Shown piece after piece: positions 8,599 through 61,699 of a DNA stretch of 64,000 nt. Under the pieces are notes generated by a model. That model saw only the letters and a list, made by a program, of their open reading frames with translations, was not told where the DNA came from and made no database searches. Origin of the DNA: Escherichia phage vB_EcoM-S1P5QW. A program made the translations under genes and the position numbers. The stretch's first letter is position 1. The number at the start of each line of letters is the position of its first letter. The DNA lies in sequence record OL956808.1. One strand, written 5' to 3'.

Positions 8599-8630
8599 GT
8601 TTACACAGGGTTTTAGTAGTGATACTATTA
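8599..8630 (+). promoter_or_regulatory. T4-type early promoter (GTTTAC -35, extended -10)
   Basis: TTTCACAAAGTTGTTTACA...GTGATACTAT read in sequence upstream of the internal-protein gene. Confidence 0.55.
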
Positions 8631-8662
8631 CCCTATCAAAACAAAACCAAATGGAAATCAAA

Positions 8663-8896
8663 ATGAAAACTTTCAAAGAGTTTATCGCTGAATCTTCTGA
8701 TGTAAAAGTTGAGTTTATTTACACCGGCAAGAAAGATAAAATGGGTGAAATGCCTCATGGAGTTCTTCGTGATGCATTAGATAATTTCGGTCAACTCGCC
8801 GCAGAAGATTACGGTGATAAAATTGTTGTTACTGGTCCTGCTGCAGTTATTGAAAAATGGGCAGCAGAAAATAAATCAATTTTTCGTAAAAAATAA
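8663..8896 (+). CDS. internal (capsid-packaged) protein with capsid targeting sequence
   Basis: N-terminus MKTFKEFIAE matches T4 internal-protein CTS (MKTYQEFIAE); gene flanked by near-identical promoter/stem-loop repeats. Confidence 0.7.
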   Translation: MKTFKEFIAESSDVKVEFIYTGKKDKMGEMPHGVLRDALDNFGQLAAEDYGDKIVVTGPAAVIEKWAAENKSIFRKK

Positions 8897-9912: not shown

Positions 9913-9985
9913 TGGGAATTAGCCAAGTTGGTAAGGCACTGGATTTTGATTCCAGGATGCAAAGGTTCGAGTCCTTTATTCCCAG
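9913..9985 (+). tRNA. tRNA-Gln (anticodon UUG)
   Basis: cloverleaf folded by eye: acceptor TGGGAAT/ATTCCCA, anticodon loop TTTTGAT, T-arm GGTTCGAGTCC; no encoded CCA. Confidence 0.8.
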
Positions 9986-9986
9986 C

Positions 9987-10073
9987 GCGAGAATGGTCAA
10001 ATTGGTAAAGGCACAGCACTTAAAATGCTGCGGAATGATTTCCTTGTGGGTTCGAGTCCCACTTCTCGCACCA
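9987..10073 (+). tRNA. tRNA-Leu (anticodon UAA)
   Basis: acceptor GCGAGAA/TTCTCGC, anticodon loop CTTAAAA, long variable arm, encoded CCA. Confidence 0.8.
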
Positions 10074-10078
10074 AATTT

Positions 10079-10152
<74 letters not shown>

Positions 10153-10156
10153 ATTT

Positions 10157-10807
10157 ATGTCTCGTCGTGAGACGCTCAGTTCTTTATTAGGGACTGATAT
10201 GCATTTTTATCTTTATAAAATAACAAATAAAATTAATAATAAAATTTATATTGGTGTGCATTCTACCGAAAATTTAGATGATGGATATATGGGTTCTGGT
10301 AAATTATTAAAAAGAGCCCAAGATAAATATGGTATAGAAAATTTTTCTAAAGAAATATTAGAGTATTTTGATGATAAAGAATCTATGCTTGAAGCCGAGA
10401 AAAATATTGTCACAGAAGAGTTTTTAAATAGACCAGATGTGTATAATTTAAAACTTGGAGGTGAAGGTGGATGGGATCATATAAATAATTATCCTATGAC
10501 AGATCAGCAACGCGAATTAATTTCATTGGGTGTTAAAAAGGCACATTCTAACGGAAAATTAAAAGGATGGTCTTCAAATGGATTAATGAAAAATGGCTTT
10601 GCTGGTAAAACTCATTCTCAAGAAGCTAAACGTAAAATAGCAAAAGCAAACGAAGCAAAAGTTTCTGCGAATGAAAGAAAAAGAAGAATAGAAATTTCTA
10701 AATTATATGATTTTTCTAAGCGGGGTGAATTATCTAAATATGCTAAGCATATTGGCGTAAGTCATACTCAAGCAAAAAGAATTCTAAATCAAATTAACAA
10801 TATATAA
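10157..10807 (+). mobile_element. segB: GIY-YIG homing endonuclease (SegB-like) inserted in tRNA cluster
   Basis: 216-aa ORF with GIY-YIG motifs (FYLYKI...KIYIGVHS) and repeated NUMOD3-like motifs; lies between tRNA-Gly and tRNA-Ser. Confidence 0.8.
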
Positions 10808-10813
10808 ATATTT

Positions 10814-10903
10814 GGAGGCGTGGCAGAGTGGTTTAATGCACCGGTCTTGAAAACCGGCAGTCGCTCCGGCGACTCATAGGTTCAAATCCTATCGCCTCCG
10901 CCA
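10814..10903 (+). tRNA. tRNA-Ser (anticodon UGA)
   Basis: acceptor GGAGGCG/CGCCTCC, anticodon loop CTTGAAA, long variable arm, CCA. Confidence 0.8.
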
Positions 10904-10908
10904 GTTTT

Positions 10909-10985
10909 GCTGATTTAGCTCAGTAGGTAGAGCAACTCACTTGTAATGAGAAGGTCGGCGGTTCGATTCCGTCAATCAGCACCAA
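10909..10985 (+). tRNA. tRNA-Thr (anticodon UGU)
   Basis: acceptor GCTGATT/AATCAGC, anticodon loop CTTGTAA, CCA. Confidence 0.8.
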
Positions 10986-10986
10986 G

Positions 10987-11061
10987 GCCCTGTAGCTGGA
11001 AGGTTCAAGCAAGCGACTCATAATCGCCAGATGGTGGTTCAATTCCACCCAGGGCCACCAA
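10987..11061 (+). tRNA. tRNA with CAU anticodon (Ile by analogy with T4 tRNA-Ile, or Met)
   Basis: acceptor GGCCCTG/CAGGGCC, anticodon loop CTCATAA; D-arm atypical. Confidence 0.65.
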
Positions 11062-11070
11062 ATTAATTTG

Positions 11071-11157
11071 GGGAGTTATCCCGTAGAGGTAGCGGTGTGG
11101 ACTGTAAATCCATTGTCATTGCGACTCGGGTGGTTCGACTCCATCACTCCCCACCAA
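11071..11157 (+). tRNA. tRNA-Tyr (anticodon GUA), type II
   Basis: acceptor GGGGAGT/ACTCCCC, anticodon loop CTGTAAA, long variable arm resembling bacterial tRNA-Tyr. Confidence 0.65.
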
Positions 11158-11160
11158 TTT

Positions 11161-11235
11161 GGATGTGTAGCTCAATGGCAGAGCGATCGCCTGTTAAGCG
11201 ATTGGTTATAGGTTCGAATCCTATCACTTCCGCCA
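11161..11235 (+). tRNA. tRNA-Asn (anticodon GUU)
   Basis: D-arm GCTCAATGGCAGAGC, anticodon stem ATCGC/GCGAT with loop CTGTTAA, T-arm ATAGGTTCGAATCCTAT, CCA; one acceptor mismatch. Confidence 0.65.
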
Positions 11236-11349
11236 AATTTGTGACAACTGTCACATTAATATCTACTTGACGCGATTATCGGGGTTGAACTGATCACTCT
11301 TCTCTTAATTTCGTGTGAAGACATCTTGATTGTTGGAGTAGGTATTAAT

Positions 11350-11425
11350 GTGGCCGTAGTTCAGTTGGTAGAACTCGAGATTGTGATTCTCGTAGTCATG
11401 GGTTCGACTCCCATCGGTCACCCCA
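11350..11425 (+). tRNA. tRNA-His (anticodon GUG)
   Basis: anticodon loop TTGTGAT, discriminator C73 then CCA, T-arm ATGGGTTCGACTCCCAT. Confidence 0.7.
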
Positions 11426-11429
11426 ATTA

Positions 11430-11505
11430 CGGGGCATAGCTCAGAAGGAAGAGCAAGGACCTTCTAAGTCCTGGGTCGTAGGTTCGATCCCTACTGCCTC
11501 GACCA
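11430..11505 (+). tRNA. tRNA-Arg (anticodon UCU)
   Basis: anticodon loop CTTCTAA, T-arm GTAGGTTCGATCCCTAC, CCA encoded. Confidence 0.8.
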
Positions 11506-11820
11506 AACAAGAAGCCGGGTCGCTACCGGTAAGTCGTCGGACTGATGTTCCCTGGGTAAGGACTGGCATTAACAAATCTTTACGATCGGTTAATGCCCCC
11601 TTACATCACAGCAGAAACGGCGCACCGAATTATCGATTCGAGGAAATATCTTTGCCGTAAGCCGAGTAGCGTTTTTGACGGAACGTTCGGATATGGTCGA
11701 GATATGGCCTTTTAAAATATTAAGTAGCGTCAACTGCTTAATAACCGGGTTCGAATCCCGGCGTTTCGTACAAACACTTGCCTTAGCAGGTGGAACCCCG
11801 ACAAGGTTGCCGCAAGGCTT
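11506..11820 (+). ncRNA. candidate small stable RNA region (T4 species 1/2, RNA C/D-like)
   Basis: ~300 nt without convincing ORF, relatively GC-rich, contains tRNA-like T-arm CCGGGTTCGAATCCCGG, ends at a hairpin terminator. Confidence 0.35.
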
Positions 11821-11848
11821 AGCCCCGACCGAAAGGTTGGGGCTTTTT
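11821..11848 (+). terminator. intrinsic terminator hairpin plus T-run
   Basis: GCCCCGACCGAAAGGTTGGGGC followed by TTTTT. Confidence 0.7.
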
Positions 11849-11850
11849 AG

Positions 11851-11858
11851 TATAAATA
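11851..11858 (+). promoter_or_regulatory. late promoter TATAAATA
   Basis: exact octamer 37 nt upstream of the 11895 ORF. Confidence 0.5.
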
Positions 11859-11894
11859 AGTATATTAAAACCACGAATTAAAACAGGAAATAAG

Positions 11895-12368
11895 ATGAAA
11901 TCATATGCTCAATTTTTAAATGAAGCGGTGTTAAATGAAGCATCTAGCACCGAAATTCAAGCCGTTGCAAAAGCTGCCATTGCCGCGGGTAAATATTCCT
12001 ATAAAGATGCTTCTGATGAGTCACGATTCCAATTTGCTCGCGATATGAAAGCGGAAGGATTTACAGGGAATGCAGTTAGTATGGCCTGGAAAAGTCTAGT
12101 TGCTACTGGAGCTGCTTTTGCAAAGGCTTCGGGTAAACCTGCTCCTAAAGCAGATCCTAAAGTCACACAAGAGAAAAATATTGTTAAAGGAATTATCTCC
12201 AAATATGAAGCTATCCTTAAAGAGCTTTTAGTAATCAAAACTGAAGGCCAAAAACTGGCTCGTGCTTATAGTTTCAAAGATAACCCACATGCTCACTCTC
12301 TTGAGTATGTTGAAGACATCCAAAAAATTATTAAAGACCGCATTTGGTCTGCTAAACAAATCAAATAA
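11895..12368 (+). CDS. internal-protein-like protein (degenerate capsid targeting sequence)
   Basis: 157 aa, N-terminus MKSYAQFLNEA resembles CTS; Ala/Lys-rich. Confidence 0.55.
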   Translation: MKSYAQFLNEAVLNEASSTEIQAVAKAAIAAGKYSYKDASDESRFQFARDMKAEGFTGNAVSMAWKSLVATGAAFAKASGKPAPKADPKVTQEKNIVKGIISKYEAILKELLVIKTEGQKLARAYSFKDNPHAHSLEYVEDIQKIIKDRIWSAKQIK

Positions 12369-12375
12369 CATTCTT

Positions 12376-12403
12376 AGCCCCGACAGAAAGGTTGGGGCTT
12401 TTT
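12376..12403 (+). terminator. intrinsic terminator hairpin plus T-run
   Basis: AGCCCCGACAGAAAGGTTGGGGCT then TTTTT; near-duplicate of the 11821 hairpin. Confidence 0.7.
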
Positions 12404-12499
12404 GGCATCTAGGCTTTTCCGGGCCTCTCTAGGCATCATTTAGTTTATATCCTTTATAATATATTATCCTATCCTTTGATTTCCCCTCCCTGCCCTAGA

Positions 12500-16285: not shown

Positions 16286-16816
<531 letters not shown>

Positions 16817-16910
16817 AGTTATTTACTTTCTCCTAGAATTGTGATAGTATATTCACAGTTACTTGAAGAGATAAATTATTAATTAAAATATTTACATTTA
16901 AAGGATACAC

Positions 16911-17384
16911 ATGAAAACATATCAAGAATTTATTACTGAAGCAGCTATTAATTCTCAAATTATTGCTGAATCTTTTACTGATCTTTTGAAATTTAAAAAA
17001 GGACAGAAAATCACTGCTGTACTGGATGATGGTACAGAAGTTGAGATGGATGTACAGGGATATAATTATGCAGTAGATGGAAAACTGTATAATAAATCTC
17101 ATGCTAAATTTGATTCATTTGACGACTTTGTTAATACAGTTGAAGATGAAAAAACTCGTCGATCCATTGCAACAGGTGATGCTAAGGTTCTTATGGCACA
17201 TGGTCATGAACGTATTCGCGCTAAACAGAATAAAATGGGTGAAGATAATTTTGCATTAGTTGGTTATCAATCTGGTAAACAAACTTATGGCTATCAACGT
17301 ACTGCTACCATGTATAACAAAAATGGTAAAATTGCCTTTGTGAATAGTAAAGGTTCTATTCAGTACGTTAAATCGTTCAAATAA
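16911..17384 (+). CDS. internal protein with capsid targeting sequence
   Basis: N-terminus MKTYQEFITEA matches T4 internal-protein CTS; 157 aa. Confidence 0.7.
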   Translation: MKTYQEFITEAAINSQIIAESFTDLLKFKKGQKITAVLDDGTEVEMDVQGYNYAVDGKLYNKSHAKFDSFDDFVNTVEDEKTRRSIATGDAKVLMAHGHERIRAKQNKMGEDNFALVGYQSGKQTYGYQRTATMYNKNGKIAFVNSKGSIQYVKSFK

Positions 17385-17537
17385 GCAAATAAGAAATATG
17401 GGAACAACCTGGACCTCATGATTCTGTGAGGGATTCCCGCCAACCTGTAATAAGGTCGAGCCCAAGTGCGGTAATGGGTAAATACAGAAATGGACAATTC
17501 ATGCGCCACGGAATGGCCCAAACCTAGAGAGAATAAA

Positions 17538-18077
17538 ATGAGAACATTTTTAACTGGTCCTTATCTATCCCTGATGAATGCTTTTACACACCATTCTGAT
17601 GCTAGAGTAGAAGAAATTTGTAAAAACGAATATATCCCGCCATTTGAAGAATTACTTAAACAGTATTGCACACTTCGACTAGATGGTGGACGTCAATCCG
17701 GTAAATCAATTGCTGTGACTAACTTTGCTGCTAATTGGTTGTATGATGGCGGAACAGTTATCGTTCTTTCTAATACTTCAGCTTACGCTAAAATTTCTGC
17801 AAATAACATTAAAAAGGAATTTTCGCGTTATTCTAATGATGATATACGTTTTCGTTTATTTACTGATTCTGTGCGCAGTTTTATTGGTAATAAAGGAAGC
17901 AAGTTCAGAGGTTTATCGCTTTCGCGAATTTTGTATATAATTGATGAGCCTGTCAAATCTCCTGATATGGATAAGATTTATAGTGTCCATATTGAGACTG
18001 TACACTACTGCTGTAATAGTAAATGTTGTATTGGTGGTATTACTCGTCCACAGTTTTTCGTAATCGGAATGCAATGA
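17538..18077 (+). CDS. small P-loop NTPase-like protein
   Basis: 179 aa from ATG 17538 (RBS GAGAGAA); Walker-A-like GGRQSGKS and Walker-B-like ILYIIDE. Confidence 0.5.
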   Translation: MRTFLTGPYLSLMNAFTHHSDARVEEICKNEYIPPFEELLKQYCTLRLDGGRQSGKSIAVTNFAANWLYDGGTVIVLSNTSAYAKISANNIKKEFSRYSNDDIRFRLFTDSVRSFIGNKGSKFRGLSLSRILYIIDEPVKSPDMDKIYSVHIETVHYCCNSKCCIGGITRPQFFVIGMQ

Positions 18078-18403
18078 TGACAGACACTCAGCTTTTCGAA
18101 TATCTTTATTTTTCGCCAAAAACTATTAAAAATAAATTGGTGAATCATTTTGAAATTTTGGCAAATAACAACGTCTTGAGCGAATTTTATCCTAAGCAAT
18201 ACAAATTACAAAAAGGCGTATTCAAAGGATGCAGAGTTTTGTGTACTGCTCCTAATGCACGGCTAATGAATAAAATTCCATATTTTACCATGGAATTTAT
18301 TGATGGTCCTTTTAAAGGACTAATCACCCAAAGTTTAATGGCATATGATTCTGAGCCATTTTTAATTAAAGAACAATCTTGGATAAATTTATTTTCTAAT
18401 TGA
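18074..18403 (+). CDS. hypothetical protein
   Basis: 109 aa; start ATG overlaps upstream stop (ATGATGA). Confidence 0.5.
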   Translation: MMTDTQLFEYLYFSPKTIKNKLVNHFEILANNNVLSEFYPKQYKLQKGVFKGCRVLCTAPNARLMNKIPYFTMEFIDGPFKGLITQSLMAYDSEPFLIKEQSWINLFSN

Positions 18404-18409
18404 GGTTAT

Positions 18410-18772
18410 ATGAAAGCATATCAAATTCTTGAAGGCACACATAAAGGTACTATTTATTTTGAAGATGGTATTCAAGCACGAATTATTGTCTCTAAAACCT
18501 TTAAAGAGGACTCTTTTGTAGACCCAGAAATTTTCTACGGTTTGCATGCCCGTGAAATTGAAATTGAGCCACAGCCTACAGTTAAAATTGAAGGTGGTCA
18601 ACACCTGAACGTTAACGTTCTGCGTCGTGAAACTCTGGAAGATGCAGTTAAGCATCCGGAAAAATATCCGCAGCTGACCATCCGTGTATCCGGTTATGCA
18701 GTTCGCTTTAACTCTCTGACTCCGGAACAGCAGCGCGACGTTATCGCTCGTACCTTTACTGAGAGTCTGTAA
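18410..18772 (+). CDS. autonomous glycyl radical cofactor (GrcA/YfiD-like; T4 Y06I homolog)
   Basis: C-terminal ~60 aa ([39 protein letters not shown]...) carry the glycyl-radical RVSGY motif and look essentially identical to E. coli GrcA. Confidence 0.85.
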
Positions 18773-60111: not shown

Positions 60112-60294
60112 ATGGAATTGGTAAAGGTAGTTTTTATGGGGTGGTTTAAGAATGAAAGCATGTTTACTAAAGAAACCACAATGATGAAAGATGACGTTCA
60201 ATGGGCTACTACTCAATATGCTGAAGTTAATAAAGCATTAGTTAAAGCTTTCATTGATGACAAGAAAGTATGTGAAGTAGATTGCCGAGGATAA
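60112..60294 (+). CDS. dmd: Dmd (discriminator of mRNA degradation; antitoxin of RnlA/LsoA)
   Basis: 60 aa; sequence recalled as T4 Dmd (gene 61.5); adjacent to gene 41; RBS GAGGAGA. Confidence 0.75.
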   Translation: MELVKVVFMGWFKNESMFTKETTMMKDDVQWATTQYAEVNKALVKAFIDDKKVCEVDCRG

Positions 60295-60295
60295 T

Positions 60296-60553
60296 ATGCA
60301 TATTGTTTTATTTAAACCTACTCCGTATAACGTCAGGAAAAATACTCAATTCAAAGCACTTATTGCAGATACGTGGGAATTGGTGCTAGATATTCCAGCA
60401 GAAGAAAGTCCTCCATTTGGTCGAGTGGAATTTATTAAGTTTGTTGTACGTCCTACGAAGAGGCAGATTCGTCAGTGTAAAAGGCATTTTCGTAAGATCG
60501 TTAAGCTAGAGAAACAGTTTGTAACATGTGATTATGCAGAAGTTTTAAAATAG
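60296..60553 (+). CDS. hypothetical protein
   Basis: 85 aa, basic. Confidence 0.5.
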   Translation: MHIVLFKPTPYNVRKNTQFKALIADTWELVLDIPAEESPPFGRVEFIKFVVRPTKRQIRQCKRHFRKIVKLEKQFVTCDYAEVLK

Positions 60554-60555
60554 CT

Positions 60556-60585
60556 GTTTACTTTTGTTGGAAATTGAGATACTAT
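60556..60585 (+). promoter_or_regulatory. early promoter
   Basis: GTTTAC...GAGATACTATAT upstream of sp. Confidence 0.5.
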
Positions 60586-60613
60586 ATAAACATAAACTAC
60601 TGAGGAGATTATC

Positions 60614-60907
60614 ATGAAAAAATTTATTTTTGCTACAATTTTTACTTTGGCTTCTTGTGCTGCTCAGCCTGCTATGGCAGGTTATGATAAAGATTTGTGT
60701 GAATGGTCTATGACTGCAGATCAGACTGAAGTTGAAACTCAAATTGAAGCGGATATTATGAATATCGTTGAGCGTGATCGTCCTGAAATGAAAGCTGAAG
60801 TACAAAAACAGCTTAAGTCTGGTGGTGTAATGCAGTATAATTATGTTCTGTATTGCGATAAAAACTTTAATAACAAAAATATCATCGCTGAAGTGGTAGG
60901 TGAATAA
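60614..60907 (+). CDS. sp: periplasmic protein Spackle (superinfection exclusion; lysozyme inhibitor)
   Basis: 97 aa with signal peptide MKKFIFATIFTLASCAAQPAMA; length and locus match T4 sp (61.3). Confidence 0.7.
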   Translation: MKKFIFATIFTLASCAAQPAMAGYDKDLCEWSMTADQTEVETQIEADIMNIVERDRPEMKAEVQKQLKSGGVMQYNYVLYCDKNFNNKNIIAEVVGE

Positions 60908-61533
60908 TGCTTTATCAAATGCACAAGTGCAAAGATACATACAAATATAAAGGTGCCCAGTGTTATATCATTAATCGTGAAAACGCGGGTCCAGGTCATT
61001 CGCATCAATCACGGTTTGTATTCGTTAAAAACAATGAAATTATAGCAGTTGCTAATTACATGCTTGTGACTAATGATGTTAATCCGGTGCCTTTTACATA
61101 TTATAATCTAATGGATTTGGCGTACGATTATAATTGGTTTAATCATGACACTTTGGCTCATATCGAAGGCGTAGGATTTGACATCTCTTATTCTAGTTAT
61201 TCGTTGTGTCCTATGAGCCGAGCTCATAAAGAGCCTGAATATTTTTCATTTCGTCGGCGTGTAGACTTTAAACGCAGTACAGAGTATGTCGGTGGAATCT
61301 TTGTTAAAGATAATCGAATTACTCGCATTATTTATCCTTTGGGCTGTGGTCAAAAAGATATTGATGTTGATTTAGACTTTACTGAAAACATCATTAATCA
61401 TATTGCTTCTGTATATTTTGATATTGATCACAAAATTGTAATATGTGGATATGAATTGCCATCTGAAAAACAGTCTAAAGTAAATGTTTCTATTGATGAC
61501 CAAATTTTTAATGCTTTTATGAATAGAGGTTAA
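60907..61533 (+). CDS. hypothetical protein
   Basis: 208 aa, Cys/His-containing. Confidence 0.5.
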   Translation: MLYQMHKCKDTYKYKGAQCYIINRENAGPGHSHQSRFVFVKNNEIIAVANYMLVTNDVNPVPFTYYNLMDLAYDYNWFNHDTLAHIEGVGFDISYSSYSLCPMSRAHKEPEYFSFRRRVDFKRSTEYVGGIFVKDNRITRIIYPLGCGQKDIDVDLDFTENIINHIASVYFDIDHKIVICGYELPSEKQSKVNVSIDDQIFNAFMNRG

Positions 61534-61534
61534 T

Positions 61535-61699
61535 ATGAAAACATATAAAGAATTTATTAAAGAAGATATGGTCGCTGGAGATTCAGGCGGTAATCCTGAA
61601 AATATCTCTACTGGAACAACGTCAGGCGCTGTAGTAAATAAAGGCCCTGAACAGATTCCTAAAAAGAAAAAAGAGGAATCTAAAGAAAAAGAAGAGTAA
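61535..61699 (+). CDS. small protein with capsid-targeting-like N-terminus
   Basis: 54-aa ORF below the cutoff; N-terminus MKTYKEFIKE resembles internal-protein CTS; Lys/Glu-rich tail. Confidence 0.45.
   Translation: MKTYKEFIKEDMVAGDSGGNPENISTGTTSGAVVNKGPEQIPKKKKEESKEKEE

Follow-up and report, generated by a model that had tools for sequence, protein, structure and literature searches.

Four capsid-targeting-type leaders in a T4-like phage genome, and the likeness of the gp61.1 core to the gp23 maturation junction

We analysed a window of 64,000 nucleotides (the whole stretch of DNA under study, from Escherichia phage vB_EcoM-S1P5QW, OL956808.1) in which four open reading frames open with leaders of the type that directs T4 internal proteins (Ips) into the prohead core. 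Judged from sequence, these four ORFs likely form two classes: Ip6, Ip4 and probably the ORF at 11895 as polymorphic Ips, and gp61.1 as a head-assembly or internal peptide. The core of gp61.1 duplicates the junction at which gp23 matures, comprising the site cut by the prohead protease gp21 together with the N-arm that follows it, and we infer that gp21 processes gp61.1 into a prohead peptide, which would set it apart from the variable anti-restriction effectors.

Four leaders in a T4-like genome

Two parts of the window, compared with phage genomes by megablast, matched hundreds of Tequatrovirus records with 95-99% identity, identifying the window at the sequence level as part of a T4-like (Tequatrovirus) genome. 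Gene order follows that of T4 around the first three leader sites (57A, 57B, ip gene, tRNA.4, tRNA cluster, e.8...e, ip gene, vs.8) and around the fourth (41, dmd, 61.4, sp, 61.2, 61.1, 61). A sequence-only reading of this DNA had listed four N-termini resembling the T4 internal-protein targeting sequence, and all four were recovered on the + strand, each at the ATG that opens its ORF (Table 1). We scanned the entire window in six frames with a strict leader pattern (M[KR][TS][YF].[EQ]F[ILV].E) and, alongside it, a looser one; both matched only at 8663, 11895, 16911 and 61535, while the loosest scan, covering all ORFs of at least 40 aa, turned up nothing further than the in-frame ATG at 8651, upstream of the first gene's start.

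Each leader closes with [L/I]-x-E (IAE, LNE, ITE and IKE at residues 8-10), the cleavage motif of gp21, the T4 prohead protease, which cuts C-terminal to Glu and has the Ips among its substrates (PMC5694885). [quoted passage not shown]

Table 1. Coordinates of the leaders, genes and associated elements in the window
Feature	Position	Strand	Remarks
Leader MKTFKEFIAE and its ORF	8663-8896	+	77 aa
Leader MKSYAQFLNE and its ORF	11895-12368	+	157 aa
Leader MKTYQEFITE and its ORF	16911-17384	+	157 aa
Leader MKTYKEFIKE and its ORF	61535-61699	+	54 aa
Promoter-like site of sigma-70/T4-early type upstream of Ip6, TTTACA-17-TACTAT with TG	8600..8628	+	Consensus match only
Ip6 (ipVI) gene	8663..8896	+	77/77 identical to GiZh ipVI
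Ip6 leader MKTFKEFIAE, residues 1-10	8663-8692	+	Predicted gp21 cut after Glu10
36-nt direct repeat, left copy	11818..11853	+	Contains terminator-like hairpin 11821-11844
T4 late-promoter box, TATAAATA	11851..11858	+	44 nt upstream of ATG 11895
ORF 11895, 157 aa	11895..12368	+	156/157 identical to RB32ORF133c; phrog_2280
36-nt hairpin repeat, right copy	12373..12408	+	92% identical; closes the cassette
Ip4 gene, 157 aa	16911..17384	+	157/157 identical to RB32 Ip4
Gene 61.1, 54 aa	61535..61699	+	52/54 identical to T4 NP_049649.1; 54/54 to phage Aplg8
61.1 leader MKTYKEFIKE	61535..61564	+	28/33 nt identical to Ip4 leader
61.1 core, residues 11-38, DMVAGDSGGNPENISTGTTSGAVVNKGP	61565..61648	+	Homologous to mature gp23* N-arm (residues 66-93)
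61.1 Lys/Glu-rich tail, residues 43-54, KKKKEESKEKEE	61661..61696	+	Lys-rich tail conserved in family

Since the window is only 35% G+C, and codons for Lys, Phe, Ile and Glu are frequent in it, such leaders might conceivably arise as chance matches in AT-rich DNA. We consider coincidence extremely improbable: the leader pattern gave 0 matches when the window was shuffled 200 times by mononucleotide, all four leaders stand at the ATG starts of conserved genes, two of the four genes belong to PHROG families named internal virion protein, and there are identities to named Ips. One other ORF, MKAYQILEG.. at 18410-18772, is the counterpart of T4 vs.6, which carries the annotation autonomous glycyl radical cofactor (GrcA-like); its start resembles the leaders only superficially and does not match the CTS pattern.

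T-even Ips are diverse, with the CTS as their one common feature, and at least 10 of them have been reported (Repoila et al. 1994, as summarised in PMC3012670 and PMC12373910). The CTS alone brings foreign proteins such as GFP or a nuclease into the core (PMC3012670, PMC9958956), by a localisation mechanism that a recent review calls 'mysterious' (PMC9958956). T4 ipI-III have early RNA and late protein (PMC9697503 supplement), and the ejection proteins named in mass spectrometry of the T4 head are IPII, IPIII and Alt, with 61.1 unmentioned. IPI inhibits GmrSD and IPIII is required on strain ECOR17. In 2025, Ip1, Ip2 and Ip3 were shown to inhibit GmrSD type IV restriction enzymes, a different one for each Ip, and ip4-10 showed no reproducible inhibition of, or interaction with, a GmrSD panel (PMC12373910); neither ORF 11895 nor 61.1 was found among the sequences tested in that screen. 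The test against type IV restriction systems, which had been put forward as a check, is therefore largely published already for Ip1-3 and ip4-10.

By analogy with T4 IPI-III, the N-terminal CTS of some ten residues would dock each Ip on the prohead scaffolding core, gp21 would remove this leader after the Glu of [L/I]-x-E, and hundreds of mature copies would remain with the packaged DNA and be co-injected, most likely to block, once inside, a host defence present at DNA entry. The route that had been proposed from the letters (packaging, injection and anti-restriction activity) is the one accepted for the Ip class in the literature on CTS targeting and on Ip1-3 and GmrSD. The leaders are indeed of CTS type, and two of the four proteins fall within the packaged and injected T-even Ip class, which includes anti-restriction factors.

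Two named internal proteins and a candidate third

Those two proteins, Ip6 and Ip4, occupy both classical ip loci (after 57B and after e). Ip6 takes the place of T4 ipI at the ipI locus, immediately after 57B; it matches phrog_8111 'internal virion protein' (E = 3e-51), its predicted mature form of 67 aa has a pI of 6.5 and is thus not basic, and it is preceded by an early-type promoter-like site, as in T4 ip genes. Ip4, found just downstream of lysozyme e and replacing T4 ipIII-ipII-denV, matches both phrog_3155 'internal virion protein' (E = 6e-102) and Pfam DUF7412, has a predicted mature pI of 9.1, and is additionally present in RB14 and AR1. We also observed that e, Ip4 and vs.8 are directly adjacent at 16816-18080, as in RB32, with ipIII, ipII and denV (endonuclease V) absent there. 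Ip6, Ip4 and ORF 11895 are all accessory and polymorphic, with other genes or nothing at the T4 counterpart sites.

Pfam and NCBIfam searches with Ip6, Ip4 and ORF 11895 gave DUF7412 (for Ip4) alone, the NCBIfam matches being weak and far below cut-offs. Against PDB sequences, Ip6 had no match, and Ip4 and ORF 11895 gave only sub-threshold matches or repeat-protein artefacts; designer PPR matches from the PDB search were discarded, with 0 passing stretches. We infer from their names and homology that Ip6 and Ip4 are packaged. The proposal that the proteins at 8663 and 16911 are new injected effectors does not hold, as both are already named in public records, and they contribute nothing new beyond two already-named additions to an established class.

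ORF 11895 is probably an unnamed internal protein. Its leader, which had been described as degenerate, is of CTS type and is conserved within its family, with the pattern M-K-[TS]-Y-x-[EQ]-F-L-x-E kept in homologues down to 39% identity (Yersinia and Klebsiella phages); the description undervalued what is the most plausible new Ip of the four. A second LNE follows the MKSYAQFLNE leader at residues 13-15. The protein belongs to a PHROG of unknown function (phrog_2280) and is found in 511 phage records, and among the matches listed nearly all are annotated as 'hypothetical protein' and none as an internal protein. The late-promoter box upstream of the gene lies immediately 3' of a terminator-like hairpin, and the predicted mature protein is about 16 kDa with a pI of 9.5.

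The two hairpin-bearing repeats frame a 555-bp cassette (11818-12408), with the left copy running into the late-promoter box. From its layout, this cassette looks like a module inserted via recombination between hairpin elements; T4 carries no gene at this position. An AlphaFold model of ORF 11895 is all-helical and two-part, with a disordered leader (pLDDT 71), and a Foldseek search of BFVD with this model recovered only its own family, while a search for the family in virion proteomics was without result.

Four independent features of ORF 11895 fit an Ip: the conserved leader, the late promoter, the basic mature form and the repeat-flanked cassette. Alternatively, the protein could be a late cytoplasmic or structural protein that stays outside the head, its CTS resemblance stemming only from shared ancestry of the cassette's 5' end, as might be suspected from a locus (between the tRNA cluster and e.8) outside both classical ip loci, from its carrying no Ip name among the matches listed, and from there being no fold or family that gives it a function. 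We consider this unlikely, since homologues keep the leader even where their bodies have fallen to 39% identity, and since the gene has a late promoter, a basic mature product and the presence/absence polymorphism that is typical of ip cassettes. As an Ip, ORF 11895 would define a third ip locus, and the RB32ORF133c-type protein, carried by about 500 sequenced T-even phages, is worth adding to Ip panels in anti-defence screens.

We also made several observations on the neighbouring tRNA cluster. ARAGORN called 11 tRNA genes at 9913-11771 (Gln, Leu, Gly, Ser, Thr, Met(cat), Tyr, Asn, His, Arg and Lys), compared with eight annotated in T4, although the 94-nt 'tRNA-Lys' (11678-11771) lies at the site of the small stable RNA rnaC in relatives, so this call may reflect the tRNA-like fold of rnaC. 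Within the cluster, between tRNA-Gly and tRNA-Ser, lies a 216-aa ORF (10157-10807) whose N-terminus reads, by eye, like that of a GIY-YIG homing endonuclease (segB-like). The position of this ORF in the cluster differs from that of T4 segB, and the tRNA-Pro of T4 and GiZh is missing in the window.

The gp61.1 core and the gp23 maturation junction

The fourth leader belongs to an ORF that had been singled out as unannotated and at an unusual locus beside primase, as a possible injected effector. It is annotated publicly, as T4 gene 61.1 (NP_049649.1), and the locus is indeed unusual and suggests a biology unlike that of the Ips, but gp61.1 is not a variable effector cassette, being conserved family-wide with a body that copies the gp23 junction. 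Its start codon and the stop region of 61.2 overlap (TAATATG), 2 nt separate its end from gene 61, and it sits inside an early operon, without a promoter to itself. In T4, the gene gives early RNA, and a time-resolved proteome did not detect its protein (PMC9697503 supplement). The literature that we found on gp61.1 consists of table entries only. Directly upstream in the window (60112-61533) lie dmd, 61.4 (tifA, a ToxN inhibitor), sp (spackle) and 61.2 (adfA, anti-DarTG), and the corresponding T4 region dmd-61.4-sp-61.2 has been proposed as an anti-toxin island; in more distant relatives, the interval from 41 to 61.1 contains different genes or is empty.

The protein matches phrog_1823 (E = 7e-34), and the family additionally forms the C-terminal part of phrog_2086. 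Using tblastn, we found 61.1 in 1396 phage records, the hosts of which include Escherichia, Klebsiella, Acinetobacter, Aeromonas and Enterobacter among others, and repeating the search at a high E-value added nothing; an exhaustive HMMER scan gave homologues in 31 cluster representatives, and a profile search in 256 clusters. No second 61.1-like copy was found within the window. Unlike the Ips, 61.1 is not polymorphic, and it lies between 41 (helicase) and 61 (primase) across Straboviridae. The order 41-61.1-61 is kept in RB43 (166 aa), Ac42 (150 aa), Aeromonas phage 60AhydR15PP (62 aa), Krischvirus kaaroe (58 aa) and KVP40-type vibriophages, and in one metagenomic contig 61.1 (239 aa) is the sole gene between 41 and 61. 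Few other small proteins of unknown function are conserved across Straboviridae as gp61.1 is.

An alignment of 33 family members defines a core (hydrophobic-x-E/x-[MV]-[VI]-A-G-D-S-G-G-N-P-x-N-I-A-S-G-x-T-S-G-x-V-x-x-x-G-P) followed by a Lys-rich tail, and the window's 61.1 has this core, this tail and the 41-61 location. What precedes the core varies, being either a short leader, often MK[TS][FY]xEF-like, or a helical domain of about 100 residues that lacks known relatives; since many homologues have this domain where others have the leader, it is not the IP-type CTS that the family conserves. Neither Pfam nor PHROGs gave a function for the N-domain of the long forms. The AlphaFold model of a long-form homologue (pLDDT 65) has the core predicted as disordered, and a Foldseek search of the PDB with it gave no match. 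As a separate observation, the metagenomic homologues P0030, P0048, P0107 and P0045 (L011 4001-4720) carry an extra domain of about 100 residues past the Lys tail, which opens with a CTS-like stretch (MNEVSNFKQFVEGLE, MNEVMTFCQF..). These proteins are possibly, by their sequence, prohead-protease polyproteins with multiple cleavage sites, formed by fusion of an Ip-like gene downstream.

In Acinetobacter phage 133, the 61.1 tblastn match fell on gene 23. BLASTP against the T4 head proteins aligned 61.1 residues 2-38 with gp23 57-93 (16/37 identical), setting the FIKE of 61.1 on FLTE65 of gp23, which is the gp21 cleavage site. When the 33-member profile was searched against 177,635 distinct PDB sequences, T4 gp23 alone was recovered, at residues 58-101 (E = 3.3e-12), with the next-best match at E = 0.06; the N-arm of phage 133 gp23 agrees with the 61.1 consensus at 17/28 positions by manual count. 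In the 33 family members, at any N-terminal length, P1 is almost always Glu and P3 hydrophobic, and this constancy suggests that the 61.1 junction itself is functional. The 61.1-gp23 relation appears to be undescribed so far, as we found no paper mentioning such a likeness.

The likeness is limited to this segment. In a search of gp61.1 against Pfam, including the Gp23 family, there was no match at E <= 0.1, the query being only 54 aa long, and we rejected gp61.1 as a gp23-family major capsid protein given this result and homology confined to gp23 58-101. We also observed that GenBank and UniRef entries for some 61.1 homologues bear the name 'major capsid (domain-containing) protein', and one the name 'methyltransferase', as artefacts of a short stretch of similarity to the gp23 N-terminus. 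With no capsid fold and no Pfam match, 'major capsid protein' is wrong as a functional name for 61.1 homologues.

In the unexpanded prohead, gp23 residues 66-105 are disordered, lie inside and probably touch the scaffold, whereas after expansion they form an external N-arm/N-fist that binds neighbouring capsomers and Soc, and mutations within the segment (A66D, A94V and G97S) alter head length (PMC9546572).

Possible roles of gp61.1 and comparison with known systems

As a CTS is sufficient for targeting, the simplest model for gp61.1 consists of docking, a gp21 cut and release of a peptide. gp61.1 would dock on the prohead core as the N-terminal region of gp23 does, gp21 would cut it after Glu10, and the Lys-tailed peptide thus released (44 residues, 4.6 kDa, predicted pI 5) would act in head assembly or as an internal peptide. 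Targeting of the long-form homologues would fall to the N-domain. The early cluster that contains 61.1 also includes gene 40, which encodes an early-expressed head-assembly factor, so a head gene in an early cluster has precedent. Like scaffold fragments, a 4.6-kDa product could leave through the pores of the prohead (PMC9546572). Early RNA with an undetected protein in T4, no listing in mass spectrometry of the T4 head, a small product and anti-TA neighbours count against this model, and for that reason we keep two alternatives.

The first shares most of its steps with the model just described, with retention of the peptide as the only difference. gp61.1 would act as a head-assembly factor that does not stay in the head, either as a pseudo-substrate or regulator of gp21 or as a competitor for the scaffold site to which the gp23 N-terminal region binds, and would affect maturation timing or head length. 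The exact copy of the gp23 cleavage junction, the head-length mutations in the corresponding gp23 segment, a core predicted to be disordered (as expected of a linear-motif mimic) and the presence of gene 40 in the cluster all fit such a factor, whereas T4 already possesses inh, a gene named as a protease inhibitor, and the strong overlap with the main explanation leaves little to set the two apart. We regard it as possible, if doubtful.

The second alternative, which we consider unlikely, would make gp61.1 an early cytoplasmic counter-defence protein, either an antitoxin of the dmd-tifA-adfA kind or a decoy of the gp23 N-terminus for host sensors or proteases. The gene lies directly downstream of adfA (61.2) in the proposed anti-TA island, whose other genes have been called 'attractive anti-toxin candidates', its RNA is early with the protein undetected late in T4, and it mimics a segment of gp23, a protein that triggers Lit exclusion, with capsid proteins triggering other defences as well. 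However, phages without the island also have 61.1 between 41 and 61, in one contig as the sole gene there, which is not the behaviour of an accessory gene, and the junction with Glu at P1 and a hydrophobic P3 has no obvious role in a decoy. The Gol determinant, which we take to be a conserved gp23 stretch downstream of residue 100, would be missing from 61.1. A review attributes stabilisation of EF-Tu binding to about 100 residues in the first quarter of gp23, and as it gives no coordinates for Gol, the determinant may overlap gp23 58-101.

Returning to gp61.1 as a processed prohead peptide, we tentatively advance a further reading, in which it is an unrecognised family-wide prohead component and at the same time a 'missing link' whose features would indicate that the Ip targeting sequence imitates the gp23 propeptide/N-arm junction. 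An IP-CTS profile run over nine T4 head proteins (2695 windows) placed the gp23 junction 57-66 at the top, a score that 4.9% of shuffles reach, and the signal there comes mostly from the F-[IL]-x-E-A part; this sequence likeness is only suggestive of a CTS that imitates the end of the gp23 propeptide. If the reading is true, gp61.1 would yield a 44-residue mimic of the gp23* N-arm with a role of its own, for instance in head-length control, capsid/DNA contact or injection. Recognition of the gp23-junction copy in 61.1 provides a concrete and testable hypothesis, including one for how the capsid-targeting sequence works, and corrects the 'major capsid protein' mis-annotations.

Among known systems, the closest to Ip6 and Ip4 are T4 IPI-III and the T-even Ip4-Ip12 (Repoila et al. 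1994; Mullaney & Black 1996), of which they are members by name and sequence, sharing the leader of about 10 residues ending in [L/I]-x-E, the two loci and the small, unrelated bodies; GmrSD targets are published for Ip1-3 only, in contrast to Ip4 and Ip6. ORF 11895 has in common with the T-even Ips the leader, a late expression signal, its size and its basic charge (with a pI close to those of IPII, 9.6, and IPIII, 9.7), but differs in its third locus at the tRNA/e.8 junction, its repeat-flanked cassette and its lack of an Ip name. That cassette resembles the promoter/stem-loop mobile cassettes (PeSL model; PMC2839356, PMC4122927) of T4-type hyperplastic regions in being bounded by hairpins, one of them fused to a promoter, and in its absence from T4 at this site, although the promoter is of late type (TATAAATA) and not early.

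For gp61.1, the leader is all that is held in common with the T-even Ips. The small, highly charged gp21 substrates gp67, gp68 and the core-derived internal peptides are comparable with its predicted 4.6-kDa charged product, but gp67 and gp68 are encoded by late genes in the head cluster and have no sequence similarity to 61.1, for which core membership is predicted only. Another counterpart is gp23 itself, in the stretch (58-101) that spans the propeptide end, the Glu65/Ala66 site and the N-arm/N-fist of gp23*: gp61.1 matches exactly there, with the cleavage site in register, while differing from gp23 in having no HK97-fold body, in ending with a Lys-rich tail and in being encoded in an early replication cluster.
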